From an uncultured Alphaproteobacteria bacterium (GTDB taxonomy: Bacteria; Pseudomonadota; Alphaproteobacteria; Rs-D84; CACZYB01), in the NCBI GenBank assembly GCA_944390685.1, contig CALXQL010000007.1:14507-78506 (forward strand): DNA of 64,000 bases, written 5' to 3'. Shown one piece after another: positions 4,649 to 19,224 of the stretch; the first letter of the stretch is position 1, and each line of letters begins with the position of its first letter. The notes under the pieces were generated by a model. It was not told where the DNA came from, made no database searches, and saw only the letters and a program-made list of their open reading frames with translations. The position numbers and the translations under genes are program-made.

Positions 4649-5833
4649 TTAATTATTTCTTTTTGCTCCAAAAGCCCCTTGAAATTGTAAATTATAATCA
4701 TCAGCAGAAGGGCTATTTTCCAACTTATAATCATCTTTTTTATTAGTATCTATAAAATTGATACCTCCAACAGCCTCTATAACTTTTTGTGTTGTTGGTT
4801 CATAATAATAATTTATAGAAAAATTATTGTTAATTATGTTACCATCTCTATCTTTAATAATGTTTTCACTATTAGGGTGTAAAATATCTTTATATTCACT
4901 ATCTGTATTTAATTTATATAAAAATGCATTATTACCAGAGCTTTCTCCTTTTGGATTATCAAATTTTAAATTTACAATATCATTACTCTCTTGTATAGCA
5001 GTTACATCATACCAATTATCAAATTTCATATTTAATGTAGATATTGGATTTCCATTATTCCTTTGAAAAGTTAAAGTAGCATTTCCATCAAGTTTTCTTG
5101 TTGTTTCTATCATTCTGTTTTCAGTAGTAGAAAAACCAGTCCCTGAAACATAACCTAACGCTTTACCAGTAAAAGCAATTTTATCCGTTTCTATTTTAGT
5201 TGTATCTATTTTTCTTTGATCATACCCACCAAAGAAACCAACAGAAAATTCTTCTGCTTCCAAATTTGTAGAACATATTCCATTATAACATTGAACCTTA
5301 TTACCTTCATTATCATATTCAAATTCCACAGTTTTAGAATCCAAAATACCAAAATCTGAATAAGTTAAATCTAATTCAATTCCCTTTGAAATAAATTTCC
5401 CTTCTTCTTCTATATAATGAGAGCCACCTTCACTTTTCCGTAATGATTTAAATGTATTGGAATCACCATCTCTTTCAAAAGATAATTGTTCATCTGGTAA
5501 TGAAAAAGCAATAATTTTACCATTTTTATCAACATCAAATTTTGCCTTTATTAAACTACCTTCTTCATATGATATGAGTTCTACATCATCTATATAAGCA
5601 TATTCATTTTTTGTTGTATTATTTGCAAATCTAACTTTTGAAGTTTCAGGATTTGATATCATTATTGCACTTGCAAGTGATGTAACTTGTTTATTACTAT
5701 TTTTAATTTCATCTGAAATTTCTATTGGTAAATTGATGTTTGGAAGACTACTTCCTCCTACTATACTTCCACCACCACCACAAGCAGTTAATAAAATTAA
5801 AGAAGATATAGATATTTTTAAATTGTTTTTCAT
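4649..5833 (-). CDS. Surface lipoprotein with a TbpB/fHbp-like C-terminal beta-barrel domain
   Basis: Lipobox LLTAC followed by GGGGS. The C-terminus (FTGKALGYVSG...FQGAFGAKRNN) resembles the TbpB C-lobe / lipoprotein_5 family. Paralog of 60295..61188. Confidence 0.5.
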   Translation of the reverse strand: MKNNLKISISSLILLTACGGGGSIVGGSSLPNINLPIEISDEIKNSNKQVTSLASAIMISNPETSKVRFANNTTKNEYAYIDDVELISYEEGSLIKAKFDVDKNGKIIAFSLPDEQLSFERDGDSNTFKSLRKSEGGSHYIEEEGKFISKGIELDLTYSDFGILDSKTVEFEYDNEGNKVQCYNGICSTNLEAEEFSVGFFGGYDQRKIDTTKIETDKIAFTGKALGYVSGTGFSTTENRMIETTRKLDGNATLTFQRNNGNPISTLNMKFDNWYDVTAIQESNDIVNLKFDNPKGESSGNNAFLYKLNTDSEYKDILHPNSENIIKDRDGNIINNNFSINYYYEPTTQKVIEAVGGINFIDTNKKDDYKLENSPSADDYNLQFQGAFGAKRNN

Positions 5834-6022
5834 GGTGTTTCTTTCATATTGTGTTTTATTGATAAATTTAATGTATATAAATATATATTATTGATAAATT
5901 GGATTTAACCCAAATCAGGATTGATGTTTATCATTACTTTATTTTAATTTTTTATTATAATAAATGATATTATCAAAACAAATAGAGACAATAATTATAA
6001 ACAGATAGATTATTAAACAAAA

Positions 6023-6050
6023 AAGCCCCAAATGCGGGGGCTTTAAATTT
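6023..6050 (-). terminator. Hairpin terminator immediately downstream (minus strand) of the tRNA 3'-half remnant
   Basis: AAGCCCC-AAATGCG-GGGGCTT stem-loop followed by T-runs on both strands. Confidence 0.4.
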
Positions 6051-6096
6051 TGGTGGCGCCTCCCAGACTCGAACTGGGGACCTGCGGATTATGATT
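6051..6096 (-). pseudogene. 3' half (anticodon loop to CCA) of a split tRNA(CAU) gene. Left junction of the island.
   Basis: The minus strand reads ATCATAATCCGCAGGTCCCCAGTTCGAGTCTGGGAGGCGCCACCA. This equals positions 32-76 of the intact tRNA at 7930..8006 with one change (G66 to A). Confidence 0.8.
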
Positions 6097-6212
6097 ACCT
6101 GCATAGACCTCGCAGAAAATCAATAACAATCACCAAACATAACTCCCGATTAGACTCTTAATTTTCTATTTATCGATATTGATTATCCCCTGTTATTATA
6201 TGGGCATATCGA

Positions 6213-6231
6213 TGTCAAAAAATTGTCAAAA
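6213..6231 (-). promoter_or_regulatory. Tandem TTTTGACA motif pair (11-bp spacing), about 115 bp inside the left island end
   Basis: The plus strand reads TGTCAAAAAATTGTCAAAA. Same motif as 7769..7790 and 17614..17634. Candidate integrase arm-type or regulator binding sites. Confidence 0.4.
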
Positions 6232-6780
6232 TTATTCGTTTAATTCAGGTAAACCTATCCTTGATAAATAATGAGAAAAACGTATTGATAAATTTTCTCG
6301 AAAAAGTTCATTTATTGTTGTTAAATATTTATCATTGTATTGTTTTTTTACATCATTATATGGAATTGTGTAATATATCTTAAAATCAATAATTAATTCA
6401 TTTAACGATTTTTCTCTATCTTCTTTTAACAAAAAATAACGTTCATCTTTATTTTGCTGAATTTTTTTATATTGTTCGCTATTTATACGAGTATGTTTTA
6501 CATTAAGATAAAATCCCTCTCTGATTTCTTCTGTTAAAAAGGCTGGTAGAATCATGATATTTGGTAAATATTGATGACAACTTTGTTTATCATCTAATTT
6601 ATTGTCTTTACATTGGCATAAATCACAATCTTGAGATAATACTACAACATATGGTAAATAAGCCTCTTTTAGTTTTTCACCTTCTAAATATATAATTTTA
6701 AAATTTTGCAATATGTCTCCCTGACATATTCTTTCTTTATCATGACTAACGTAAAATGAATTTATATTACTGTTAAACAT
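6232..6780 (-). CDS. Hypothetical protein, 182 aa. Last gene of the three-gene operon at the left island end.
   Basis: ORF with cysteine/aspartate-rich segment VVVLSQDCDLCQCKD. No family recognised. Confidence 0.5.
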   Translation of the reverse strand: MFNSNINSFYVSHDKERICQGDILQNFKIIYLEGEKLKEAYLPYVVVLSQDCDLCQCKDNKLDDKQSCHQYLPNIMILPAFLTEEIREGFYLNVKHTRINSEQYKKIQQNKDERYFLLKEDREKSLNELIIDFKIYYTIPYNDVKKQYNDKYLTTINELFRENLSIRFSHYLSRIGLPELNE

Positions 6781-6782
6781 TA

Positions 6783-6986
6783 TTAATCTTTTCTTAAAAT
6801 TTTGAAAATATTTTCACATAATACTTGTTCAGAAAAAACATTTCTTTTATAACTACCATCGGATATGGAAGAATCGTAATAATCTTTAATAAAATTAAAT
6901 TCTTTTTCTTCAGAAATTATTATATCATTACATTTTATACCACTATTTTCTTTTGTAGAAAATTGATTTTCTAGAATTTTATCCAT
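6783..6986 (-). CDS. Hypothetical small protein, 67 aa. Middle gene of the operon.
   Basis: Tightly packed between its neighbours: 2-nt gap on one side and an 8-nt overlap on the other. Confidence 0.4.
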   Translation of the reverse strand: MDKILENQFSTKENSGIKCNDIIISEEKEFNFIKDYYDSSISDGSYKRNVFSEQVLCENIFKILRKD

Positions 6987-7695
6987 TTAATTTACTCCTT
7001 AAATCATCTGTAATACTCTTTTCAAATAAATCTTGAATAATTCCATGAAAATTATTCAAAAGAGCAATTATAGTTTTTTCCGATGGAAAATCCTTTGTTG
7101 AAACATCTATATCTAGTATAAAATCATTTTTCTTAATTAATGGAGCAGGATAATTTGGATTATTTATTCCAAAATTGAAAATAACATTTGAATCATCAGA
7201 TTTAAATGACAACTGTTCCATATATCTATTTAAAGATAAATTTTTTAAACTCTCAGCAAAATTATAAATTGAAAATAAATTAGTATCTATATAACCTATC
7301 TTACTAATATTATCTATAGGAATATTATTTATAAAGCGCAATCCTAATCTTTTATATGAAATATCATTTTTATAAAGTTCTTCAAATTTTCCAAATATAC
7401 GATTAAAAATATCCAAAAAATCTTCAAATGTAGTATATTTTTTTAATTCAAAAATTAAGGAATTGCATGATAATGAAATTTTTAATTTTTCTTTTTCAAA
7501 TTCAAAAATATTGATTAAAGAGAAACCATTTTCTGATGGAATTAATATTTTATTTTTATTGTTATTATAATCTAACAAATCTTTTACAAATTCTTCTTTT
7601 ACATCACTTTTCAAAGAATTGATTTCAGAAAAATCCAATCTACAAATAACATTAGTTATATAATTGTTATTATATCTGATACCATCATAACTCAT
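6979..7695 (-). CDS. Hypothetical protein, 238 aa, possibly TIGR04255-like. First gene of the operon.
   Basis: N-terminal ITNVICRLDFSEI and internal RLGLRFINNI resemble my recollection of the TIGR04255 family pattern. Not verified. Confidence 0.45.
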   Translation of the reverse strand: MSYDGIRYNNNYITNVICRLDFSEINSLKSDVKEEFVKDLLDYNNNKNKILIPSENGFSLINIFEFEKEKLKISLSCNSLIFELKKYTTFEDFLDIFNRIFGKFEELYKNDISYKRLGLRFINNIPIDNISKIGYIDTNLFSIYNFAESLKNLSLNRYMEQLSFKSDDSNVIFNFGINNPNYPAPLIKKNDFILDIDVSTKDFPSEKTIIALLNNFHGIIQDLFEKSITDDLRSKLNG

Positions 7696-7768
7696 TTTTG
7701 TTTTTCCTATATAGAAGTTAAAGCCTCACATCTAAATGTTATCATAATTTAATATCTTTGCAATCGTT

Positions 7769-7790
7769 TTTTGACATTATTTTTGACACT
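7769..7790 (+). promoter_or_regulatory. Tandem TTTTGACA(T/C) motif pair (12-bp spacing)
   Basis: TTTTGACATTATTTTTGACACT, between the minus-strand operon start and the island tRNA. Confidence 0.4.
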
Positions 7791-7888
7791 AATTTATTTT
7801 TAGGGTGATTTCGTGTTAGAAAAAAGTTTTGAAAATCCCAAAAATTTGCTAAAAATTATGAATTTTTCTTAAAATTTATTGAAACTTG

Positions 7889-7917
7889 TTGACTTTTAAA
7901 ATGGGATATTATATTAT
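7889..7917 (+). promoter_or_regulatory. Sigma70-type promoter for the island tRNA(CAU)
   Basis: TTGACT (7889-7894), 17-nt spacer, TATTAT (7912-7917), about 12 nt before the mature tRNA 5' end. Confidence 0.45.
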
Positions 7918-7929
7918 GAAACAATCTTG

Positions 7930-8006
7930 GGCGCCCTAGCTCAGTTGGTTAGAGCGACGGAATCATAATCCGCAGGTCCCCAGTTCGAGTCTGGGGGGCG
8001 CCACCA
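7930..8006 (+). tRNA. tRNA(CAU): elongator Met or lysidine-type Ile2, 77 nt with encoded CCA
   Basis: Cloverleaf folded by hand. Acceptor GGCGCCC/GGGCGCC, D-stem GCTC/GAGC, anticodon loop ATCATAA (anticodon CAT), T-loop TTCGAGT, discriminator A, then CCA. G1:C72 makes it not an initiator. The acceptor stem resembles E. coli Ile2. Confidence 0.85.
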
Positions 8007-8084
8007 AAAATCAAAAATATATAAATCGCTTGAAATGTTTCTGAATTTTGTGTTAACATATACAAAGTAAGGAAAGGATTTTTT

Positions 8085-10472
8085 ATGTCAGAAAGAATTA
8101 CAGAAAATTTAGTATTAAAGGAGATGGATATATCTCTTGGTAAAAATGATTTTGGATTTGTTTTCGATCAGGGAGACACTTTATCAATAACAAAAATTAC
8201 TAATTTACTTAAAAAGGCTGGTGGCAAACCAAAATTTTGTCCTTTAAATGATTTTAATCAAGGTGAACCTGGTAAGGCTCAACCAGAGTATATAATCACT
8301 TTTAATAAAGACTTAAATCTTATTATTGTTGTAGAATGTAAAAAGACAATAAAATATCATGCATCTCAAAATTTGGATATGCCAAAAGATTATGCTGTTG
8401 ATGGCGCTCTTTATTATGCAAAATTTTTAAAAGAAGAATTTAATGTAATAGCTTTAGGTGTTAGTGGAACAAAAAAAGAGAATATGAAAGTTTCTACTTT
8501 TTATTGGCCAAAAGGTATGGAAAAATATATAGATTTACCTAGAGGTAAAGACGTTCTTTATACCCCTGAAAATTACATTAATTTAATTCAAGGAAAAAAA
8601 GTTGAAAAAGCAATTTCTATTGAAGATATTCAAAAATTAGCTCTTACTATGCATGAAAATTTAAGAGCATTAAAAATGACAGAACGAGCAAAACCTGTTT
8701 TTATTGCTGGTATCTTAATTGCTCTTAAAAATGAAGCTTTTATTAGTGATTATAGAAAATTAACATCTTTTACAGCGTTGTTAAATATGTTGCAACAAGC
8801 TATTAATGAAGAATTGGTTAATAGTGATATACGCCCTGAAAAGATTTCTGATATAAAAACACATTTCCAAATGATTGGAAAAAATAGTAAACTAAAAGAG
8901 ATTCCTTTATCTCATGATAATTCATTACTTTGGTATGTTGAACAATTAGAAACAAAAATTAAACCAATGATGGATTATTCGTCTGAGGCTGTTGACGCAC
9001 TTGGGATTTTTTATCATGAATTTGTTAAATATAGTGGTGGCGATGGTAGTGGTTTAGGTATAGTTTTAACACCTCAGCATTTGACTGAATTTATGGCTGA
9101 TTTAGCAGAAATTAATAAATCTAGTAAGGTTGTAGATATCTGTTGTGGTTCAGGTGCCTTTTTGGTTACATCTATGGTGAAGATGTTTAAAGGGGCAACC
9201 CAACAAGAAATTAATAAAATTAGAAAAGAAGCTTTGTATGGCGTCGAAAGTGATGATGATATTTATACATTAGCCATCGCAAATATGATTGTTCGTGGAG
9301 ATGGAAAATCCAATATCTTTTATGGAGATTGCTTTAATAAAGATATTATCAATAATCTAAAAGAAAAAAAGATAAACATAGGATTGATAAACCCACCATA
9401 TTCTCAAAAAGACCATTGTGAATTAGAATTTGTTGAAAATATGTTGGATATATTAGTGACAGGAGGAACTGGTGTTATAGTTGTTCCAATGAGTTGTGCA
9501 ATTGGAACTAAATTTAAAGATGTAAGGGAAAGGCTATTTAAGAAACATACTTTAAAAGCAGTTTTTTCTATGCCTGATGACATTTTTTATGCAAATAATG
9601 CTAGTACAAATGTTTGTGTAATGGTATGGGAGGCTCATAAACCTCATGATAGTACTCAAAATACATTCTTTGGTTATTATAAACATGATGGTTTTGTAAA
9701 AGCAAAAAAACTTGGCAGAATTGATAAATTTAACAAATGGGAAAACATTAAAAAAGAATGGCTTTCATTATATAGGGAGAGAGATATTAAAGATGGTTTC
9801 ACTGCAAAGAAGCCTGTAAAATGGAACGATGAGTGGTTGTGCGAAGCCTATATGGAAACAGACTATTCAACGCTAAAGAAAGCTGATTTTGAAAAAACTA
9901 TAAAGAATTATCTTTCATATTTAGTCTTAACTGACCAGTACAATTTATATAAAAAAATACCTGAAAAAAGGATAAAAGAGTCCAATCCTTGTGAATTAAC
10001 GAATATAGATACTTGGCAAAAATTCGAGCTGAAACGTTTATTTGAGGTCAAAGGTACAAAAACAACGAAATTGGATGATTTAAATCTTTCTGGAATCGGG
10101 AAGTATCCATATGTTACGACACAGTCTGTTAATAATGGTGTTGCTGGATATTACAACTTGTTTACAGAAAAAGGAAATGTATTAACTGCAGATAGTGCGG
10201 TTGTTGGATTTTGTTCTTATCAAGAAAATGATTTTTCTGCTAGTGATCACGTAGAAAAATTACTTCCAAAATTTGAAATGAATAAGTATGTTGCCATGTT
10301 TTTGACGACAATTATTAATCTTGAAAATTATCGGTATAGCTATGGCCGAAAATTTAATCAGACAAAAATTAAAGATACAATTATAAAGTTACCAGTAGAT
10401 TCTCAAGGTAGTCCTGATTGGTTATTTATGGAAAATTATATTAAATCTTTACCGTATTCCGATTTAATTTAG
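8085..10472 (+). CDS. Single-polypeptide type IIG/IIL-like restriction-modification enzyme: N-terminal PD-(D/E)xK-like nuclease region, gamma-class N6-adenine methyltransferase, C-terminal target-recognition domain
   Basis: 795 aa. Motif I VVDICCGSGAFLV and motif IV LINPPYS. The N-terminus PEYIITF...IIVVECKK is nuclease-like. C-terminal about 200 aa are TRD-like. Confidence 0.65.
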   Translation: MSERITENLVLKEMDISLGKNDFGFVFDQGDTLSITKITNLLKKAGGKPKFCPLNDFNQGEPGKAQPEYIITFNKDLNLIIVVECKKTIKYHASQNLDMPKDYAVDGALYYAKFLKEEFNVIALGVSGTKKENMKVSTFYWPKGMEKYIDLPRGKDVLYTPENYINLIQGKKVEKAISIEDIQKLALTMHENLRALKMTERAKPVFIAGILIALKNEAFISDYRKLTSFTALLNMLQQAINEELVNSDIRPEKISDIKTHFQMIGKNSKLKEIPLSHDNSLLWYVEQLETKIKPMMDYSSEAVDALGIFYHEFVKYSGGDGSGLGIVLTPQHLTEFMADLAEINKSSKVVDICCGSGAFLVTSMVKMFKGATQQEINKIRKEALYGVESDDDIYTLAIANMIVRGDGKSNIFYGDCFNKDIINNLKEKKINIGLINPPYSQKDHCELEFVENMLDILVTGGTGVIVVPMSCAIGTKFKDVRERLFKKHTLKAVFSMPDDIFYANNASTNVCVMVWEAHKPHDSTQNTFFGYYKHDGFVKAKKLGRIDKFNKWENIKKEWLSLYRERDIKDGFTAKKPVKWNDEWLCEAYMETDYSTLKKADFEKTIKNYLSYLVLTDQYNLYKKIPEKRIKESNPCELTNIDTWQKFELKRLFEVKGTKTTKLDDLNLSGIGKYPYVTTQSVNNGVAGYYNLFTEKGNVLTADSAVVGFCSYQENDFSASDHVEKLLPKFEMNKYVAMFLTTIINLENYRYSYGRKFNQTKIKDTIIKLPVDSQGSPDWLFMENYIKSLPYSDLI

Positions 10473-10498
10473 AAAATACTCAAAAGAGATAAATAAAA

Positions 10499-11266
10499 AT
10501 GTTCAATTATAATGAATTACTTAAATCTATCTTTCCAATAGGACTTACAAGCAAAAACGATATTGAAAATATAAAAGATTTTAATGGAACTGCATTTTTA
10601 GTTAATTGTTCAGGTTTCCTTTCTGTTATAACAGCATATCATTGCGTGTCTAGTATTGCAAAATATCGTTTCAAAGTGACATCTGAAGATAATATCACAA
10701 CCGATATGATAAAAAAGGTTTTAGAAGATAATATTAATTTTGGATATATAAAATCAAATAAACAAATTTATAGCATTCCTATTAGTAATATTTTTAGAGG
10801 GATTTCTGAGGTCGGTAATAATATTGATACCATCATTTGCAAAGTTAATGAAACTGACATGATAAAAAATAATAATACTTCTCTTTCTGATTTAAAAGCA
10901 TTAGAAATTTCTACTAATAAGCTTATTATTGGTAATTATTATGAATTTTATGGTTTTCCTAATATTAATAGAGATAAAATTAATAAAATAATATATATGG
11001 ATAGTAGAAAATTAAAGTTAATTAAATTAGAGCCAAAAGAAGATTATGGAAATGCTGTTTATGGATATTTAGATATAACTCATACTAAAGATACTCTTAA
11101 AACAATTGAAGGATTTAGTGGTTCCCCATTGTTTGATAGTACGGGTAAAATTGTTGGAATATTAGAAGAAATAAATGAAAATGATAAACATATAAGATTT
11201 ATAGCTCTAGATACTATAATTTATTTTATGACAAATATAATTAAAAATAATTTTCACATATTTTAG
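10499..11266 (+). CDS. Cytoplasmic trypsin-like (S1 family) serine peptidase
   Basis: His motif ITAYHCVSS and Ser motif GFSGSPLF. No signal peptide. It starts 26 nt after the R-M gene stop on the same strand. Confidence 0.6.
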   Translation: MFNYNELLKSIFPIGLTSKNDIENIKDFNGTAFLVNCSGFLSVITAYHCVSSIAKYRFKVTSEDNITTDMIKKVLEDNINFGYIKSNKQIYSIPISNIFRGISEVGNNIDTIICKVNETDMIKNNNTSLSDLKALEISTNKLIIGNYYEFYGFPNINRDKINKIIYMDSRKLKLIKLEPKEDYGNAVYGYLDITHTKDTLKTIEGFSGSPLFDSTGKIVGILEEINENDKHIRFIALDTIIYFMTNIIKNNFHIF

Positions 11267-11278
11267 TTTTTAATAGAA

Positions 11279-11761
11279 TTAAAATAAATTATCTATATTA
11301 TCTAATATATTATCAGAAATTTCTATTATTTTAATAATATCTGTACAGATATTTAATTTTGGAGGTGTATCATTGTAATTATGTGCCAATCCATGCCTAA
11401 AATTTAAAAAATCTTTGAAAATACTAATATCATAATTTTCTATACCATCATCTAAAAATGATAATTTTTCTTTAGAAATATTAAAACCTTTTAATAGAGA
11501 TTTTAAATCCTCTGGTTTTAAACCTCTATGTAATTTAGGCATTTTCTCAAAATAAGAATTTATGTAATCATTATCAGTTTTTAATTTTTCTTTTAAAATA
11601 TTTGTTAATTGTGTTTCTATATCACTATATAATACAAGAACAATATATTGGTTAACAATACTTTTAGCAAAATCAGTATCTGCCTCTTTTGGCAACTTAT
11701 CTAAAATTCCGCTTTTTATCTGCTTATATATACTATTTGTTTTCTTTAAATATTTAATCAT
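11279..11761 (-). CDS. HEPN-like small protein, 160 aa
   Basis: R-x4-H motif in FLNFRHGLAHNY. Its start overlaps the stop of the upstream DUF262 gene (ATGA), which suggests translational coupling. Confidence 0.45.
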   Translation of the reverse strand: MIKYLKKTNSIYKQIKSGILDKLPKEADTDFAKSIVNQYIVLVLYSDIETQLTNILKEKLKTDNDYINSYFEKMPKLHRGLKPEDLKSLLKGFNISKEKLSFLDDGIENYDISIFKDFLNFRHGLAHNYNDTPPKLNICTDIIKIIEISDNILDNIDNLF

Positions 11762-12827
11762 TATTTAATACTGAATATGCTATTTTTAACCTATCGTTAA
11801 CATTTTTTGTAGAAATAGTTCCTTGTTGTGCTTCATATATTTTTCTGTAATCTTCGTTATTTTTCAATATTTCATAACGTTCTTTTAAATTTGTAATACT
11901 TGTATCAGAAAGCATTAAAGCAGTAATAACAGAATCTAACAACACATAATTAGGGCGAGTATAAATAGTAAAAGGTTTTTCTCCCAATTCTCTAATTAAT
12001 AAATCGGCTACAGACTTAAATTTTTCACAAAATTCATCAATATTTTTATTTTTATTATTATGACAAAAGATATTTAAAAAAGGCTTCATACTAGTTTTGT
12101 ATGTATTAAGCACCTGTTCTTCTTTATTCCAATCATAATAGAAAGCAACCAGTCTCAACAAAAGTTCAACATCTGTATATCTATTATCACAACTATCCTT
12201 ACCTAAAATCTTACGCCAGTTTGAATCTTTATTTAAATCTTCTAAACTTTTTATTAAAGTTCCGTAATTTATTGCTCTTCTAATTTCCATATTATTTAAA
12301 TTTTGCCCACCTGTATTTAATCTTTCAAATACTCCATATAATACTTGAATATCAGAAGAATCTATTTGTCTTATCATACATGCGGATAATTGAGCTGATT
12401 TTAATTTTTCTTGAAAATTTTTAGGTAATAAGGAAAAAGTTTTTCCAATAAATTTTTCATTTACATCAACTAATTTGAAATTATCTTCTAAAAATTCATT
12501 AATGGTAGAAATACGTTGATATCCATCAACTATTAAATAAGTTTCTTTCTCTACAATTTTATATAAAAATACTGGAGGAATTGGGTAATCAAACAATAAT
12601 GATTCTATGAAACGACTTTTACCTCGTTGATTCCAAACTTTATTTCTTTGAAAATCAGGTTTATAAAATATTTTTTCTTTAAATCTTCTATTGTATTCTT
12701 CTAAAGAAAAACTTGCTGGATATGTTATTATTTCTGAAGCAATTTTATCTATTTCTTCTGAAGTATGTTCTATTTCTTCTATATCAATATCTTCTTCATT
12801 TAAATTTTCTTTGATTGAGTTTTCCAT
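11754..12827 (-). CDS. DUF262 (ParB-like/GmrSD N-terminal domain) protein, 357 aa
   Basis: DGQQR-type motif IVDGYQRIST and downstream FERLNTGGQNL motif. No fused DUF1524/HNH domain. Confidence 0.65.
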   Translation of the reverse strand: MENSIKENLNEEDIDIEEIEHTSEEIDKIASEIITYPASFSLEEYNRRFKEKIFYKPDFQRNKVWNQRGKSRFIESLLFDYPIPPVFLYKIVEKETYLIVDGYQRISTINEFLEDNFKLVDVNEKFIGKTFSLLPKNFQEKLKSAQLSACMIRQIDSSDIQVLYGVFERLNTGGQNLNNMEIRRAINYGTLIKSLEDLNKDSNWRKILGKDSCDNRYTDVELLLRLVAFYYDWNKEEQVLNTYKTSMKPFLNIFCHNNKNKNIDEFCEKFKSVADLLIRELGEKPFTIYTRPNYVLLDSVITALMLSDTSITNLKERYEILKNNEDYRKIYEAQQGTISTKNVNDRLKIAYSVLNND

Positions 12828-12969
12828 TTTTAACCTTTCATAAAATATACAGTATAATTTTACAATAATTTATCTAATAAAATCAAGTTATTTTATATTG
12901 AGAATTTATGATTTTATGATATTATTGTACAAGTTAAAATACAAGAATTTAATCATAAAGGATAAGACA

Positions 12970-13587
12970 ATGGATAATAATAGTAGATGGGATGAAATAT
13001 ATAACGATGTGAATAATAAAATATTAACAGAAGAAGAATTTTTTGAATTTATAAAAAAAGATAATACAGATATTTTATCTGAATCTATTAATGAACAAGA
13101 TGTAAAAAGTATATTCAAAGAAACAGCATTTTCAGTTGAAAATATAGAAAAGATTGAAAAATATATTAATTCTGTTAATCAAGAAGAAAGCTCTAATATA
13201 AATCCAAATGATATTCCATCAAAAGAAGAAGTTTTACAAATATTAAAAGATATGAAAAATTTTAATATGTTTGAATTATATACATTTTTAAGAAAAAAAG
13301 ACAAATCTGATGATGCAAACAAAGGTAATTCAAATAAAGTAAATGTTAGAGAAAAAATAAAAAAATTAATGAAAAAACGTTATGAAGAAAACAAGAATCA
13401 AACAAAAAAAGAACTCATTTATACAACATTAGAAGAATATTTTTATAAAGACAGTATAAACAATTTTGCAAAAGCAACTGGTATTGATATAAATGATATA
13501 AAAAAATGTTTAAAACAAAATTCTAAGCACTATTATTATGGGGATAGAGCTCTTGAAAAAATCTGTAAAGAACTAGGTATAAGTTAA
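12970..13587 (+). CDS. Hypothetical protein with a probable C-terminal HTH (island cargo)
   Basis: Likely start MDNNSRW at 12970 (RBS AAGGA upstream). The ORF track starts at 12898, an upstream in-frame extension. The C-terminus ...GDRALEKICKELGIS is HTH-like. Confidence 0.45.
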   Translation: MDNNSRWDEIYNDVNNKILTEEEFFEFIKKDNTDILSESINEQDVKSIFKETAFSVENIEKIEKYINSVNQEESSNINPNDIPSKEEVLQILKDMKNFNMFELYTFLRKKDKSDDANKGNSNKVNVREKIKKLMKKRYEENKNQTKKELIYTTLEEYFYKDSINNFAKATGIDINDIKKCLKQNSKHYYYGDRALEKICKELGIS

Positions 13588-13609
13588 CCTATTAAAATCT
13601 AAAATTTTA

Positions 13610-13643
13610 AACGCTGTAATATATTATTTTTACAGCGTTTTTT
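13610..13643 (+). terminator. Rho-independent terminator
   Basis: AACGCTGTA, 12-nt loop, TACAGCGTT, then TTTTT. Confidence 0.5.
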
Positions 13644-13659
13644 CATATCAAAAATTTGT

Positions 13660-13737
13660 GAACGACGCTGCGTCGTTCGGTTTATAAACTGGATTTTGTT
13701 TCAAAAATCTGTATAGTCATTTACATCAACGCGTTGA
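13660..13737. promoter_or_regulatory. Two GC-rich perfect palindromes in an AT-rich intergenic region
   Basis: GAACGACGC-T-GCGTCGTTC at 13660-13678 and TCAACGCGTTGA at 13726-13737, upstream of the 13757/13814 gene. Confidence 0.4.
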
Positions 13738-13756
13738 ATGAACTTGTTTTAATAAG

Positions 13757-14032
13757 TTGAGTAATATCAATAAGTTAAAGCGTAATATTAATAAAAAAAG
13801 AAAGGATTTTTTGATGACTAAATATATGTTGTCTATAAAAGACTTTTGTACTCAGTTTCCAACTTTTAAGTATGGACAAGTACGCAACCTAATCTACTAC
13901 GAAAATCGTAATGGATTAAATGATATGCAGGTCATTCTTCGCATTGGTAAAAGAATTTATATTGATGTCTACAGATGGTTTGCATGGATAGAAAAAATTA
14001 ATCACATAACAAGGGAGACACAATATGAATAG
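13757..14032 (+). CDS. Hypothetical small protein. The probable true start is MTKYML at about 13814.
   Basis: ORF track entry. RBS AAAGGA lies before the internal ATG. The stop overlaps the next gene start (ATGAATAG). Confidence 0.4.
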   Translation: MSNINKLKRNINKKRKDFLMTKYMLSIKDFCTQFPTFKYGQVRNLIYYENRNGLNDMQVILRIGKRIYIDVYRWFAWIEKINHITRETQYE

Positions 14033-14876
14033 GGCGTTAAAAAAAGTTAAGAAAGAATTGGCAAGAAAAGCAGTCAGAAAAGAACATTTGATACAAAGGA
14101 AAATTAATAAGATGATAGAAACAGAAAAAAATAGTGTAGAAAATTTAAAAACTTTTTTAAATGACATTTATATGGGTAATTCTATAAATGAAAAGCAATT
14201 TAAATGCGATATTCTAATAAAATATGCAGTTAACTGTATAAAAAGATTAAGTAAAAATAAAAAGAACTTAAATCAAAAATATAAAGAATATCTATCAACA
14301 ACTACAGTTAGCAATTATTATAAATTTTCATTTAATGATTTCAAACGTTTTATGAATATTTTATATAAAGATTCAATATATCATTTAAAAAATTGTAAAG
14401 TAGATATTGATAATATAGAAAATACGATACTTTACAAAAATATTCAAAATGTTATGAAAGAATATAAAAAATATGAAAACTATTTTGGTCGTGATTATCT
14501 TGATAACGATGCTTGTTTTCTTGAATATATGAAAAAAATGGCTTTGATTGGATATATAATTAATGTTTATGAAAGACTTGATATATATGATGATATTGGA
14601 ATATTAACTTATGACGAAACTGCTGCTGTAATTGGTCATAAAATGTCATTTATGACGTTTTATGATGACATGTATAAAACAAAACCTAGTTTTAAAAATA
14701 TGTTAGATATCAATGTATTAAAAAAAGATTTTGAATTTGTATATCCATTCTTTTCTTATTCTAATCTTTTATATTATTTAGATAAAAGCGAGAAATATAT
14801 AAGAATAGATAGAAGAATAGAAAATCAATGTCTTGATATATATCGTATTAGTATCTGGGAAGAAAATTTATTTTAA
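14025..14876 (+). CDS. Hypothetical protein, 283 aa (island cargo)
   Basis: Long ORF with a K/R-rich N-terminus, translationally coupled to the preceding gene. Confidence 0.5.
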   Translation: MNRALKKVKKELARKAVRKEHLIQRKINKMIETEKNSVENLKTFLNDIYMGNSINEKQFKCDILIKYAVNCIKRLSKNKKNLNQKYKEYLSTTTVSNYYKFSFNDFKRFMNILYKDSIYHLKNCKVDIDNIENTILYKNIQNVMKEYKKYENYFGRDYLDNDACFLEYMKKMALIGYIINVYERLDIYDDIGILTYDETAAVIGHKMSFMTFYDDMYKTKPSFKNMLDINVLKKDFEFVYPFFSYSNLLYYLDKSEKYIRIDRRIENQCLDIYRISIWEENLF

Positions 14877-14941
14877 ATAAGTAAATAAAAAAGTGGGAGG
14901 GGTAAAACTCTCTCACTTTTCAATAATATAGGAATAATAAA

Positions 14942-15413
14942 ATGGTAAGCGAATACAAGAAAGCTATTATAGAAATGGCTAGCAATGATATTTATAAATT
15001 AGCAATTACATTTTCTTTTAATATTGATGTCATTAATACTGGTTTTAATATAGATACTGTTAAAAAGAAAATCAGTGATTTTAACTGTCGATTTTTTAGA
15101 GAATATTATAATAAATGGAATTGGTATAAAAAAAATCAAAGTCAGTTCTATTCACTTTGTTGAACATCAGAATAGTTATATTCATTTACACTCTATTTAC
15201 TCTATACCTAATAAACAAGATATTAAAAATCTTGATATTATAGATACAAATTGGGTATGTAAGTATAAAGAGTTAGCAGAAAAGTGTTTTAATAAAGTTT
15301 GGTATAATGGAGATATATTTCTTACTTCAATCACAAGTAATGGATATGCAAATTATATCACAAAAGAAGTGTCTAACTATGTGTCTGATTGTGATAGTTT
15401 TTTTATTCTTTAA
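14942..15413 (+). pseudogene. Hypothetical gene disrupted by a frameshift at an A8 tract. Track ORFs 14942..15163 and 15075..15413.
   Basis: The two overlapping ORFs switch frame at AAAAAAAA (15128-15135). Joined, they give about 170 aa. Confidence 0.45.
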
Positions 15414-15420
15414 ATAAAAT

Positions 15421-15451
15421 AAGAGATAAGAATTTCGAATTTTTATCTCTT
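15421..15451 (+). terminator. Long imperfect hairpin just after the 15413 stop. Terminator-like but without a clear T-run.
   Basis: AAGAGATAA(GAATTTCGAATTT)TTATCTCTT. Confidence 0.3.
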
Positions 15452-16061
15452 ATCGCACTCTCACACACTCCGGTATAGTTTTAGTGATATTTTATAAGTA
15501 AAAAAGACAAGATATATTGCACTTTAACTTCTAGATAATTATAAAAACTGTAAATTTGATACAAGATACAGTTTTAAACATATAGATATAAGATTAGTAA
15601 TAATAGTATAAACTGAAAATTACTAACTCTTATAAAATTTACTTATTAATCATAAAAAAAATTAAACTATAGATATTAAACAATTATTAAATTAATCAAT
15701 TACGCTCTTTTCAAATAAACAATATAAATGAAGTTTTTATCTAAAAAATCTTTATATTCTAATAAATCATCAAATTCATATACGGTTTTCTGACCTGACC
15801 TATGAACGACATATACTCTAAGTTTATTACTAGAATTTAGTACTTTTTCTTTCATTTTTATAACCTATATAAGTTTATATATTATATTTATATAGATTAA
15901 AATTTTATATTTTTTAGATTTATAGGTTCAAAATACATATCAAATTCAGCATTTACAGAAATCAGTTCAGACATATAAAAATAACCATATTCAGGATAGT
16001 TTCCATACATTTTAACAAGTCCAAACATTTCGCCTGTATCTTCATCTACTTCTAAAACATA

Positions 16062-16280
16062 CTAATCTGCATTAGGTGTAAAGTAATGCAAATAAGCAAT
16101 CTTTTCTTGCTTGCAATCTTGTCCATATAGTTTTGGTACTTGTTTTAATATTGAATAAAAATGATTTATTTGAGATTTAAAGAATTTCTTTTCTTCACTG
16201 TGAGAAATATAATTCATAAAGACAAGAAATTGTGATTTATTGAAGAATTTTCTTATAAAAACTAATTTTTCTATATCCAT
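16062..16280 (-). pseudogene. Hypothetical gene with an in-frame TAG. The reading frame continues about 55 codons downstream to about 15895.
   Basis: After ...HYFTPNAD-TAG the same frame reads YVLEVDEDTGEMFGLVKMYGNYPEYGYFYMSELISVNAEFDMYFEPINLKNIKF. Confidence 0.35.
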
Positions 16281-16362
16281 ACTATACCTCGTTCTTTTAT
16301 ATATTTAATTATACATTGCAACGAGATAAAGTACACAAGAAATGGCTAATTTCTGCGATAAA

Positions 16363-17454
16363 CTACAAGTCTTTATTATCTATATTGATAAAATTATCAA
16401 CCATATTTGCAACAACAGATTTCTTATGTTCATTTGAAAGATGGGCATATCTTTTAACCATTTGTAACGATTTATGACCTAATACATCAGCAATCTCAGA
16501 AGCGCTTGCCCCATTCATTGCTAAATAACTTGCACAGGTATGACGTAAATCGTGAAATCTAAAATTCTCTATATTTGATTGATTTAATGCTTTATACCAT
16601 GATTTATCAAGATTTATTGGAACATTGCCTTTTCTGTTAGGAAAAAGATATTTAGATTGTGTTTTTTCTTTCATATCTTTTAACATATCACAGATTTTAC
16701 CATACAAAGGTAAAGTCCTTCTTTCTCCATTTTTAGTATCTTCCAATGTTGCCTGTGATTTATCCAAATCAACATCTTTCCATTGTAAAGTAAGAATTTC
16801 ATTCTTTCTTGCACCTGTTGTTAATGCTAAAAGAATAATAGGATAAAGATATTGATTTTCTGAACGTTTAGCATTTTCAAACAAAGCCTCTCGTTCTTCG
16901 TTTGTAAGATAACGAACGACACCTTTTGGTTGTGGAAACTTTTTTATATTTGCGACGGGATTTTTATCAATCCATTGTAATTCTTTTACAGCATAAGTAT
17001 ATAACGCACTCAATGCTGCAATATAGTGATTTAAAGTAGATTTTGTTTTTGCCTTATTATGTGGTGTCGGAATTTCTGCAATTTTGTTAATAGTATCTCT
17101 GATAGTTTTTACATTAATTCTGCTTAGTAAATAATTACCAATCAAGTCTTTCCAAACCTGTAAAAGATGAGGTACTTTTTGTCCCTTATTAATATAAACA
17201 CTAGAATTTTTACCTTTATTCGGTAAAACGTATTCTGAATAATAATCTATAAGTTCAGCCAAAGTATGCTTTGTTGCCTCTTGTTTATCATCATATTCGC
17301 CAAGTTTTATTTTGGTTTCAATCTTGTTTGCCCATTCCTCAGCCATTCTTTTTAATGGAAAACTTTTCATTACTGATGGAGTTCCCTTAATCCTTACTCT
17401 TGCATACCAAACTGTTTTACCTTTATTGTTTACTCTTGAATTAATTGTTGCCAT
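16363..17454 (-). CDS. int: Tyrosine recombinase / phage-type integrase
   Basis: 363 aa. The C-terminal catalytic region HDLRHTCASYLAMNGASASEIADVLGHKSLQMVKRYAHL carries the R..H..R..Y signature. It sits about 350 bp from the right attachment site. Confidence 0.9.
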   Translation of the reverse strand: MATINSRVNNKGKTVWYARVRIKGTPSVMKSFPLKRMAEEWANKIETKIKLGEYDDKQEATKHTLAELIDYYSEYVLPNKGKNSSVYINKGQKVPHLLQVWKDLIGNYLLSRINVKTIRDTINKIAEIPTPHNKAKTKSTLNHYIAALSALYTYAVKELQWIDKNPVANIKKFPQPKGVVRYLTNEEREALFENAKRSENQYLYPIILLALTTGARKNEILTLQWKDVDLDKSQATLEDTKNGERRTLPLYGKICDMLKDMKEKTQSKYLFPNRKGNVPINLDKSWYKALNQSNIENFRFHDLRHTCASYLAMNGASASEIADVLGHKSLQMVKRYAHLSNEHKKSVVANMVDNFINIDNKDL

Positions 17455-17613
17455 TTTAAGTACCTATATCATTTATTTTATATAGTTATATTATATAACA
17501 AAATGGGGTAATGTACACAGTTTTTATAAAGAGATTTATAATCCTTACACCCCTAAAAATAGCATATTGATTTTACTATATTTTTCACAGAAAATGCTTG
17601 AAATTTTAATGAT

Positions 17614-17634
17614 TTTTGACACTATTTTGACACT
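17614..17634 (+). promoter_or_regulatory. Tandem ATTTTGACACT repeat (11-bp spacing) between int and the right island end
   Basis: TTTTGACACTATTTTGACACT. An inverted single copy TGTCAAAAA lies at 17705..17712. Confidence 0.4.
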
Positions 17635-17806
17635 GATTTTATACCATAATTTTAACCCATTTTATTGGTGGTGATTGATACCTGTTTTTAAGTGGAATTA
17701 TTGATGTCAAAAACGAGTCAAAGAATTTAAAATATAGAGATTTTAACCTGTATAAGTTATTAATTTTACTAATAATTTAAAGATTTTGAAGAAGAAAAGC
17801 TCGTGC

Positions 17807-17845
17807 TTATGATTCCGTCGCTCTAACCAACTGAGCTAAGGCGCC
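17807..17845 (-). pseudogene. 5' half (position 1 to anticodon loop) of the split tRNA(CAU) gene. Right junction of the island.
   Basis: The minus strand reads GGCGCCTTAGCTCAGTTGGTTAGAGCGACGGAATCATAA. This equals positions 1-38 of the intact tRNA with one change (C7 to T), then diverges. Confidence 0.8.
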
Positions 17846-17905
17846 AAAGATTTAATAAATATACTATATAACTCACACAAAGTCAATATATTTATTTAAA
17901 TCTCA

Positions 17906-18741: not shown

Positions 18742-19224
18742 TTATGCTACATCATCACCAGAAGGAGATGTATTTTTCTTAATGAAATCGGAAATGGAAA
18801 TGATATTATCGCCATCATCACTTGTAAATGAAAGTTCTGGTTCCTTTTCTTCAATATCATCTAATATATCATAAGGCGTGAAAGTCAAAGAAAAATCAAC
18901 AGATTTATCATAAAATACCATAAGAGCATTAAAAGGCACAATGATATGATAATTATGATTATTAAAAGAAAGAGTTATACCAAATTCTTTATCATTTACG
19001 GATAAATTTGAATATTCATGTTGAATTATAATAGTCAAAGATTCAGGATATTGTTTATAAAGGAATTCTGGAATTACCACCCCTTTAATGGAAGTTTTAA
19101 AAGTGATATAAAAAAAATGATTTCCAGGAAGACCATTATCCGCAACCAAAGTCAAACTTTTTTTCACAATACCTATTAAGGCATTATCAAGCATTTTATT
19201 ATAATCAAGAAAATCTTCACTCAT
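18742..19224 (-). CDS. sspB: ClpXP adaptor SspB (alphaproteobacterial type)
   Basis: LPGNHFFYITF, YPESLTIIIQHEY and IIVPFNALMVFYDKSVDF match the conserved SspB core. It has an acidic C-terminal tail. Confidence 0.65.
   Translation of the reverse strand: MSEDFLDYNKMLDNALIGIVKKSLTLVADNGLPGNHFFYITFKTSIKGVVIPEFLYKQYPESLTIIIQHEYSNLSVNDKEFGITLSFNNHNYHIIVPFNALMVFYDKSVDFSLTFTPYDILDDIEEKEPELSFTSDDGDNIISISDFIKKNTSPSGDDVA

Follow-up and report, generated by a model that had tools for sequence, protein, structure and literature searches.

Background

tRNA-dependent lysogeny has been described in actinobacteriophages such as Fionnbharth, LeBron, Gaia, and others (Guerrero-Bustamante and Hatfull 2024, PMC10865867). 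A tyrosine integrase acts on a core of 8-17 base pairs (bp), the transfer RNA (tRNA) gene is not reconstructed, and a phage-encoded cognate tRNA is required for viable lysogens, as was shown experimentally in mycobacteriophages. Related phages have cores of 40-50 bp and regenerate the tRNA. Experimental proof of this strategy has so far come from some phages only. The question was raised in the same paper of how common tRNA-dependent lysogeny is beyond actinobacteriophages. Here we describe a similar arrangement in 64,000 nucleotides (nt) of DNA (contig CALXQL010000007.1 of assembly GCA_944390685.1; hereafter the window) from an uncultured alphaproteobacterium. An integrative island of 11,710 bp (6097-17806) has probably split a host tRNA(CAU) gene at the anticodon loop and supplies its own replacement tRNA.

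Comparable prophages are known. S. meliloti prophages like Mesorhizobium phage Lo5R7ANS inactivate tRNA-Leu(UAG) and carry a replacement tRNA, which resembles genes of other Alphaproteobacteria (PMC11476347). Prophage Lj965 of Lactobacillus johnsonii, as cited in PMC10865867, combines a disrupted tRNA with an element-borne tRNA of the same anticodon. The general pattern of tRNA islands, in which the tRNA is regenerated, is found in the Islander database (PMC4383910).

A tRNA(CAU) gene in two halves

Three tRNA(CAU)-related sequences exist in the window. They had been noticed in a sequence-only reading of this DNA, and every coordinate is confirmed by ARAGORN, Rfam, and sequence comparison. The intact gene (77 nt, 7930-8006, plus strand; 64 bits in Rfam) has the pair C7:G66. 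The other two are pieces of the host gene on the minus strand. The 5' piece (17807-17845, attL side) comprises nt 1-39 with U7 and is identical to the intact copy at 38 of 39 positions. The 3' piece (6051-6096, attR side) comprises nt 32-77 and is identical at 45 of 46. The single mismatch of the 5' piece, read from 17845 to 17807, is C7 to T. In the 3' piece, read from 6096 to 6051, G is replaced by A at index 67 (position 66 in standard numbering). Both pieces contain the octamer TTATGATT (6089-6096 and 17807-17814), as had been claimed, and their overlap, AATCATAA, consists of the anticodon loop and one base.

Joining 17845..17807 to 6088..6051 gives a sequence of 77 nt, and the predicted refolding of the rejoined pieces is borne out: ARAGORN finds a normal cloverleaf with a T7-A66 pair, which differs from the intact island copy at the 7:66 pair only. 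(Minimum free energy folding gave no cloverleaf for either the joined or the intact sequence, and ARAGORN was used instead.) An intact gene identical to the joined halves is found in L094, a metagenome contig from a different organism with 41% GC. The U7:A66 form is therefore a real tRNA, and this gene, together with the U7:A66 covariation, supports the earlier view that the two pieces are halves of one gene. No further fragment of tRNA(CAU) is found in the 64 kilobases (kb) when up to six substitutions are allowed (<=6), which excludes chance. The only other tRNA called in the window by ARAGORN and Rfam is an unrelated tRNA-Tyr.

The sequence-only reading placed the element in the anticodon loop of the tRNA(CAU) gene and saw no tRNA regenerated at either junction. 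Both statements hold. The insertion is site-specific at the 8-bp anticodon-loop core, and neither junction context alone gives a tRNA in ARAGORN. On the integrase-proximal side the core is followed by GCACGAGCTTTTC... and not by a tRNA 3' half. Both junction 60-mers are found exactly in independent assemblies of four ENA samples, so the arrangement is not an assembly artefact, and chromosomal genes and island are joined on single contigs at each side. Readings by inversion only and by nested islands were ruled out, as both pieces are on the same strand in the right order with no other fragments.

The host gene's transcription signals appear to have been parted as well. A putative promoter (TTGACT-17-TATATT, 17858-17886, minus strand, 10/12 match) is located 12 nt before the 5' piece, and its layout matches that of the promoters of homologous tRNA genes. 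The terminator hairpin that had been reported after the 3' piece is found directly 3' of it (6022-6044, minus strand), with an 8-bp stem of which 5 pairs are G-C and a T-tail. Terminator-like sites are enriched (3 found versus 0.4 expected). From the 5' piece to the integrase gene (int), the minus strand has no terminator-like hairpin, and read-through from the host promoter into int may be possible for this reason.

The integrase and its attachment sites

The tyrosine integrase (363 amino acids (aa), 16363-17454, minus strand) matches PF00589 at 2.9e-35, and its start was measured at 352 bp inside the right junction (about 350 bp had been estimated). R216, H301, R304, H327, and Y336 are in alignment columns that are invariant across 28 homologues. 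The family consists of 6,899 proteins at E <= 1e-20. The closest relatives outside the same strain are only about 50% identical. For a survey of the family, 80 loci were fetched, one genome per species. The common pattern among them is an intact tRNA gene, of many isotypes, that shares the strand of int and precedes it by 180-520 bp. The extent of the direct repeat was scored where the far island end lay within the fetched locus. In the regenerating relatives L013, L059, L073, L022, and L081, the repeat extends from tRNA position 28-33 to the 3' end. These starting points indicate that the family exchanges strands in the anticodon loop and that the 3' half brought by the island usually restores the gene. 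The 3' piece in the window begins exactly where the repeats of these relatives begin, and this is the same place as the 8-bp core.

Islands that target tRNA genes were reportedly divided into sublocation classes by Williams in 2002. The window island shares with the anticodon-loop class the catalytic residues and flanking direct repeats inside the tRNA; it has no island-supplied 3' part that leaves an intact hybrid gene.

Each island end contains an arm-like region. The integrase-distal region (6097-6236) ends with ...TCTATGCAGGT at the core, and the integrase-proximal region (17455-17806) abuts the core with GCACGAGC. A direct repeat of 62 nt with the motif GATGTCAAAAA has one copy in each (6169-6230 and 17661-17722, 71% identical). 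The copies sit 70-150 bp inside the junctions, which is the layout expected for arm-type integrase sites. The integrase-proximal end also has two TTTTGACAC motifs at 17614-17639. In the longer form TTTTGACAC(T)NNTTT, the motif is found at 17614-17628 and 17625-17639, and a third copy, at 7781-7795, precedes the island tRNA by 135 bp. Read on the opposite strand, the motif matches GTCAAAA, the core of the arm-like repeats. The copy at 7781-7795 is a possible integrase-binding site adjoining the island tRNA module.

More distant sequences were also examined. On L052, a 4.8-kb contig labelled as a Pseudomonas fluorescens metagenome-assembled genome (MAG), an integrase with 39% identity is preceded, at a distance of about 190 bp, by an inverted tRNA(CAU) 3' fragment (1030-1075; positions 32-77, 97.8% identical). 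Thus tRNA(CAU) is also the target of a more distant member of the family. A home-made scanner for tRNA 5' halves was dropped since it was too noisy (183 extra matches in 2.9 Mb); for loci without a recognisable tRNA, only those scanner matches that were confirmed by BLAST were kept. The tRNA 5'-half pattern has no match in IMG/VR. The nearest integrases of that collection are <=42% identical over the full length, with one partial match (L135, 51% over residues 140-353), and the split-plus-replacement arrangement is absent from the 23 best-scoring IMG/VR contigs (L127-L149).

The presumed replacement tRNA and its probable origin

As had been noted, the element supplies a complete, slightly diverged tRNA copy with its own promoter. 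The tRNA is preceded by an upstream module (7767-7929, plus strand) that includes the promoter TTGACT-17-TATTAT at the expected place (7889-7917, 10/12 match). Promoter-like matches are not enriched in this AT-rich window (24 found versus 18.4 expected), and the support for the island-tRNA promoter therefore comes from its conservation in homologous contigs. Upstream module and tRNA are 88-95% conserved in L092, L098, L100, L102, L115, and L119, and the homology of the module ends at about 7767 in L098, L102, and L115.

The tRNA and its promoter (about 7857-8017, and up to 7767 in some contigs) are 88-95% identical to genes in other AT-rich contigs. Several of these contigs are clearly chromosomal: L095 has thyX and pgk, L100 has tuf, and L093 has a porin gene. 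The island copy looks like a captured chromosomal gene, native to a sister species, rather than a phage-type tRNA. A second case is found in L107, one of the related islands described below. The first 40 nt of its island tRNA-Thr(CGU) (14873-14948) are the same as those of the split host gene of L112 (about 9671-9711). By such identities, the islands of this clade apparently carry tRNAs that are native to the clade's other hosts. In the E. coli collection, the top match of the island tRNA is the tRNA of a P1-like plasmid, annotated by PGAP as tRNA-Ile (80% identity); similar phage genes are labelled tRNA-Met. The G1-C72 pair argues against an initiator tRNA.

Two further observations concern this module. 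The region 8007-8085, following the island tRNA, lacks the terminator that chromosomal homologues have (e.g., L092 and L116). A gene for a Type IIG restriction-modification protein starts 79 nt after the tRNA on the same strand, and the island-tRNA promoter may also drive this gene by co-transcription. In L098 (1-1080, compared with L095 130-1020), the tRNA with 160 nt of the island-type upstream module directly adjoins chromosomal DNA in synteny with L095 (lipoprotein gene), and about 180 nt have no counterpart in L095. L098 may be the scar of a native tRNA gene that was replaced by an island-type copy.

The same design in the nearest relatives

The nearest integrase relatives repeat this design. 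With integrases of 46-49% identity, their islands split tRNA-Ser(GCU) or tRNA-Thr(CGU) likewise, and a diverged intact copy exists on the opposite strand near the end far from the integrase. In L103 (an NCBI MAG, integrase 49%), the 5' piece of tRNA-Ser(GCU) is at 9443-9486, int is at 10001, the intact tRNA-Ser(GCU) on the opposite strand is at 16896-16984, and the host 3' piece with its terminator is at 18893-18952. The core is 13 bp and the island about 9.4 kb. The anticodon stem of the L103 island copy covaries with respect to that of the host (GCGGA/TCCGT versus GCAGA/TCTG[T/C]); the two host pieces disagree at the last base of this stem. In L106/L107 (integrase 47%), the pieces of tRNA-Thr(CGU) are at 9670-9707 (5') and about 15229-15289 (3'), the inverted intact copy at 14873-14948 is clearly diverged, the core is 12 bp, and the island is about 5.5 kb. 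An equivalent arrangement at tRNA-Thr(CGU) is found in L110/L111 and in L112 (integrase 46%). The top match among species genomes (L012) is a truncated copy of this L110/L111/L112 Thr(CGU) type.

A neighbour-joining tree places the window integrase with L103 and the Thr(CGU) islands, none of which regenerates its tRNA. L109 (integrase 47%) is a neighbour in the tree and regenerates its tRNA-Asn. A further partial example, L072, is placed elsewhere in the tree, and its position suggests that the non-regenerating design may have arisen more than once. In L104 (integrase 50%), upstream of int there are only two successive 5' fragments of tRNA-Asn(GTT). One (about 8011-8050) ends after the anticodon loop and the other (about 8227-8275) after the variable region, and the 18-kb contig has no intact tRNA-Asn. 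The double fragments may come from nested or repeated insertions.

Some other loci have related features. In L086, the integrase lies between a tRNA-Thr(CGU) 5' half and an intact copy (5614-5791 and 11663-11700), which share a strand and are 6 kb apart. A 20-nt inverted fragment (positions 31-50) is found at a distance of 83 bp from the intact copy. Such a locus may represent a flipped state of the same design (see below). Three loci, L025 (649-978), L033 (8389-8559), and L055 (9626-9884), have an intact tRNA followed by the integrase; this tRNA is preceded, at a distance of 50-220 bp, by a 5' fragment of its own kind that covers positions 1-32, 8-41, and 1-56, respectively. Here the replacement tRNA could be beside the integrase-side junction, or the fragments could be scars of earlier events.

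Three states of the site in a sister species

Comparison with related genomes, which the sequence-only reading had proposed as a check, reveals both an empty site and an occupied site with an identical junction. A set of sister-species contigs encodes one identical LepA (P0131), which is 91% identical to the LepA of the window, and has the tRNA site in three states. In the empty state (L116-L118), an intact native tRNA(CAU) exists between the AhpC gene and an open reading frame (ORF) of 183 aa. This native tRNA is 100% identical to the island copy of the window. In the occupied state (L119), only the 3' piece is left at the native spot, and the junction, ...TCTATGCAGGT abutting AATCATAA, is identical to that of the window. 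The 140-bp arm is 96% identical to 6097-6236 of the window (96.4% for arm and 3' piece), and the inverted intact tRNA with the restriction-modification gene is 92.9% identical to 7780-9925 (2.1 kb).

In the third state (L115), the site is occupied and the segment between island tRNA and 3' piece is inverted. An intact tRNA with the island-type upstream region stands at the native position, and the arm and the 3' fragment are inside the island. A segment of about 1.5 kb is thus present in both orientations (L115 3262-4811 and L119 3283-4816) in contigs with the same LepA, which indicates that the 46-58 bp inverted repeat formed by the tRNA acts as a substrate for inversion. After the flip, the two attachment sites stand in inverted orientation.

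The island ends of L119 and L115 are 94-96% identical to those of the window, with the junction at the same nucleotide. In both contigs another gene (349 aa) replaces the three ORFs found at 6232-7695 of the window, and both are from samples other than that of the window. The host flanks of the two species are only 77% identical, compared with 92.9-96.4% for the island, so the island moved between them recently. Mobility in nature and presence/absence polymorphism in the sister species are directly visible in these contigs, and the island appears to be polymorphic within a population. Relatives with a 93%-identical LepA are not syntenic at the locus and have no tRNA at that spot.

Cargo of the island

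Three ORFs (182, 67, and 238 aa; the last matches TIGR04255 at 1.2e-24) are found at 6232-7695 on the minus strand. The Type IIG restriction-modification fusion following the island tRNA (8085-10472, plus strand) consists of an N6_Mtase and a specificity domain (PF02384, 4.2e-28; PF01420, 1e-16; PADLOC REase_MTase_IIG, 2.8e-98). It is followed by a trypsin-like serine protease (10499-11266, plus strand; PF13365, 8.3e-07). A DUF262/GmrSD_N protein of the NsnA / PD-T4-2_A type is encoded on the minus strand at 11279-12827 (PF03235, 1.8e-22; NsnA, 1.6e-58; PD-T4-2_A, 3.7e-45), where an ORF for a 160-aa partner overlaps the DUF262 gene. Seven small ORFs (229, 91, 283, 73, 112, 51, and 72 aa) at 12898-16280 have no significant match in Pfam, NCBIfam, or PHROG. 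No phage structural, lysis, or repressor family is found in the 11.7 kb, and the two PHROG matches are both to families of function unknown. The element does not class as a temperate phage. Its gene content reads as that of an integrative island with predicted anti-phage defence cargo, not of a prophage.

Proposed mechanism and other explanations

Our preferred reading, to which we give a probability of roughly 80%, is that the island split the host tRNA(CAU) at the anticodon loop and supplies its own replacement tRNA. The integrase would recombine a short island site, consisting of the core AATCATAA and the arm-type repeats, with the anticodon loop of the host gene. Related elements seem to carry an island site with the tRNA 3' half. 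Since the site of this island lacks that half, integration would leave two dead pieces, one at the integrase end (nt 1-39, preceded by the host promoter) and one at the far end (nt 32-77, followed by the host terminator). Decoding would be kept by the island tRNA(CAU), a gene in opposite orientation with a promoter of chromosomal type, situated 1.8 kb from the far end. The island copy is presumably transcribed from this conserved promoter, and it probably substitutes for the split gene and is needed by the host. Were the island to excise precisely, the host gene would be restored, since the sequence of both pieces is still perfect. The predicted restored attB is ...GAGCGACGGAATCATAATCCGCAGGTCC... 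with T7 and A66 in the flanks, and the predicted attP is ...GAGGTCTATGCAGGTAATCATAAGCACGAGCTTTTC.... Needing the conserved loop alone would free the island from matching the acceptor and T arms of the host.

Several points weigh against this reading. No excision factor is recognised among the island ORFs in Pfam, NCBIfam, or PHROG. For the window's own species no empty site, attP circle, or excision product is found, and in look-ups of four flanking and island proteins every contig with the exact protein carries the island. In L119 the fetched DNA ends before the homologous island reaches its integrase-proximal junction. That the island tRNA is expressed is deduced from its conserved promoter only, its isotype is either elongator Met or Ile2, and a second tRNA of the same isotype is possible outside the 64-kb window.

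The last point is relevant to an unlikely alternative, in which the host tolerates the split thanks to a redundant gene outside the window and the island tRNA serves some other purpose as cargo, for instance by resisting anticodon nucleases or by improving decoding where the genome is AT-rich. A role of phage tRNAs against defences that cleave tRNA has been suggested (discussion of PMC10865867), the element is otherwise a defence island, and our view is limited to 64 kb of the genome. However, split gene and island tRNA share their anticodon in all relatives examined (CAU, Ser-GCU, and Thr-CGU, the last in three further types), and such pairing is not expected of unrelated cargo. Also, the anticodon stem-loop of the island copy is identical to that of the host and so offers no evasion of an anticodon nuclease. 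A former regenerating island that lost its integrase-side 3' half by deletion after integration, the loss being tolerated through another copy, is more improbable still. It would fit the more distant integrase relatives, which regenerate their tRNAs, and the tree neighbour L109 with its tRNA-Asn, but identity ends exactly at the end of the anticodon loop and leaves a core of the size of a tyrosine-recombinase exchange. Four other island types in the integrase clade have non-regenerating junctions with 12-13 bp cores, and all assemblies of the strain agree.

Two other explanations deserve very little weight. The halves could be transcribed apart and joined in trans as in Nanoarchaeum, given that the 5' piece retains a promoter and the 3' piece a terminator. 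The duplex of trailer and leader has -17.9 kcal/mol compared with -17.4 +/- 3.6 kcal/mol for shuffled sequences, so their complementarity is no better than that of shuffles; no promoter stands out before the 3' piece, and an intact copy is 1.8 kb away. Moreover, the splicing endonuclease pathway of archaea is not known from bacteria, which counts against such joining. An assembly or binning artefact that joined unrelated contigs at a repeated tRNA sequence is hardly credible either. Contigs from a metagenome, as here, can be mis-joined at tRNA repeats, but exact junction 60-mers recur in the assemblies of four samples, contigs span from chromosome into island on each side, and L119 and L115, from other samples, have the same junction.

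A wider and more tentative reading takes the comparative results together. To split a tRNA and bring one's own would be standard for this island clade of Alphaproteobacteria, and each island tRNA would have been captured from another host and kept inverted near the integrase-distal end. The inverted copy and the displaced 3' piece would then bound an invertible segment, as flipped in L115. The flip would put the foreign tRNA at the native site and reverse one attachment site. With one site turned, the island could be locked in place, and native tRNAs could be replaced by foreign ones across species. We consider this possible, but less likely than not.

Comparison with known systems

Among the titles and abstract openings of papers mentioning tRNA-dependent lysogeny, the design is not described for non-phage islands or for this clade. 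The compensation for the disrupted target had been called unusual in the sequence-only reading. It is rare, although it had already been described (PMC10865867; PMC11476347). The same logic is now found in a defence island that is small and not a phage, and also in its nearest relatives. Three different tRNAs are involved, and the hosts are Alphaproteobacteria represented by metagenomes only. Island finders that seek a regenerated tRNA and a displaced 3' fragment will miss such elements, which to annotators will look like an "extra" tRNA with two fragments that lack an explanation. The natural core of 8 bp fixes the place of strand exchange in this integrase family at the anticodon loop. Needing only an anticodon-loop core of 8-13 bp should widen the host range, and native tRNA genes are swapped for foreign ones.

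Like conventional tRNA islands, the island has a PF00589 integrase 200-500 bp from the tRNA, a crossover in the anticodon stem-loop, and a host 3' fragment at the far end. Unlike them, it has a site with no tRNA 3' half, it leaves the target unrestored, and its direct repeat measures 8 bp, against about 45 bp in theirs. Another parallel is offered by the archaeal split tRNA genes of Nanoarchaeum and Thermoproteales, in which complementary leader and trailer sequences bring the halves together and a splicing endonuclease joins them. There, too, the gene is parted at the anticodon loop into two distant pieces. In the window, by contrast, there is no leader/trailer complementarity, and an intact copy replaces the gene.

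The S. meliloti and Lj965 prophages form a further parallel. As far as the cited parts of these reports go, they resemble the island in disrupting a tRNA and bringing one with the same anticodon that resembles genes of other species, and the S. meliloti case is likewise in Alphaproteobacteria. They are prophages known from genome comparison, while for the island a conserved inverted layout, a clade of islands, and polymorphism are seen.

The island follows the logic of tRNA-dependent lysogeny. It also has a tyrosine integrase with arm-type sites, an attB in a tRNA gene, and an 8-bp core, which is repeated at the junctions with no functional tRNA there, and the element carries a tRNA of the same anticodon. 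More distant relatives of its integrase regenerate the tRNA, as in the phages. The differences are in the element and its host. With 11.7 kb, no recognisable phage genes, and defence cargo, the term lysogeny is not applicable, and the host is an uncultured alphaproteobacterium. Unlike in the phage system, the replacement tRNA has a chromosomal-type promoter and is inverted near the far end, a layout common to the clade. The need for the tRNA is experimental in the phages and deduced for the island. The mechanism is thus already known in principle, and what is new is its setting: a clade of non-phage defence islands in uncultured Alphaproteobacteria, with an inverted-tRNA layout and a flip variant.

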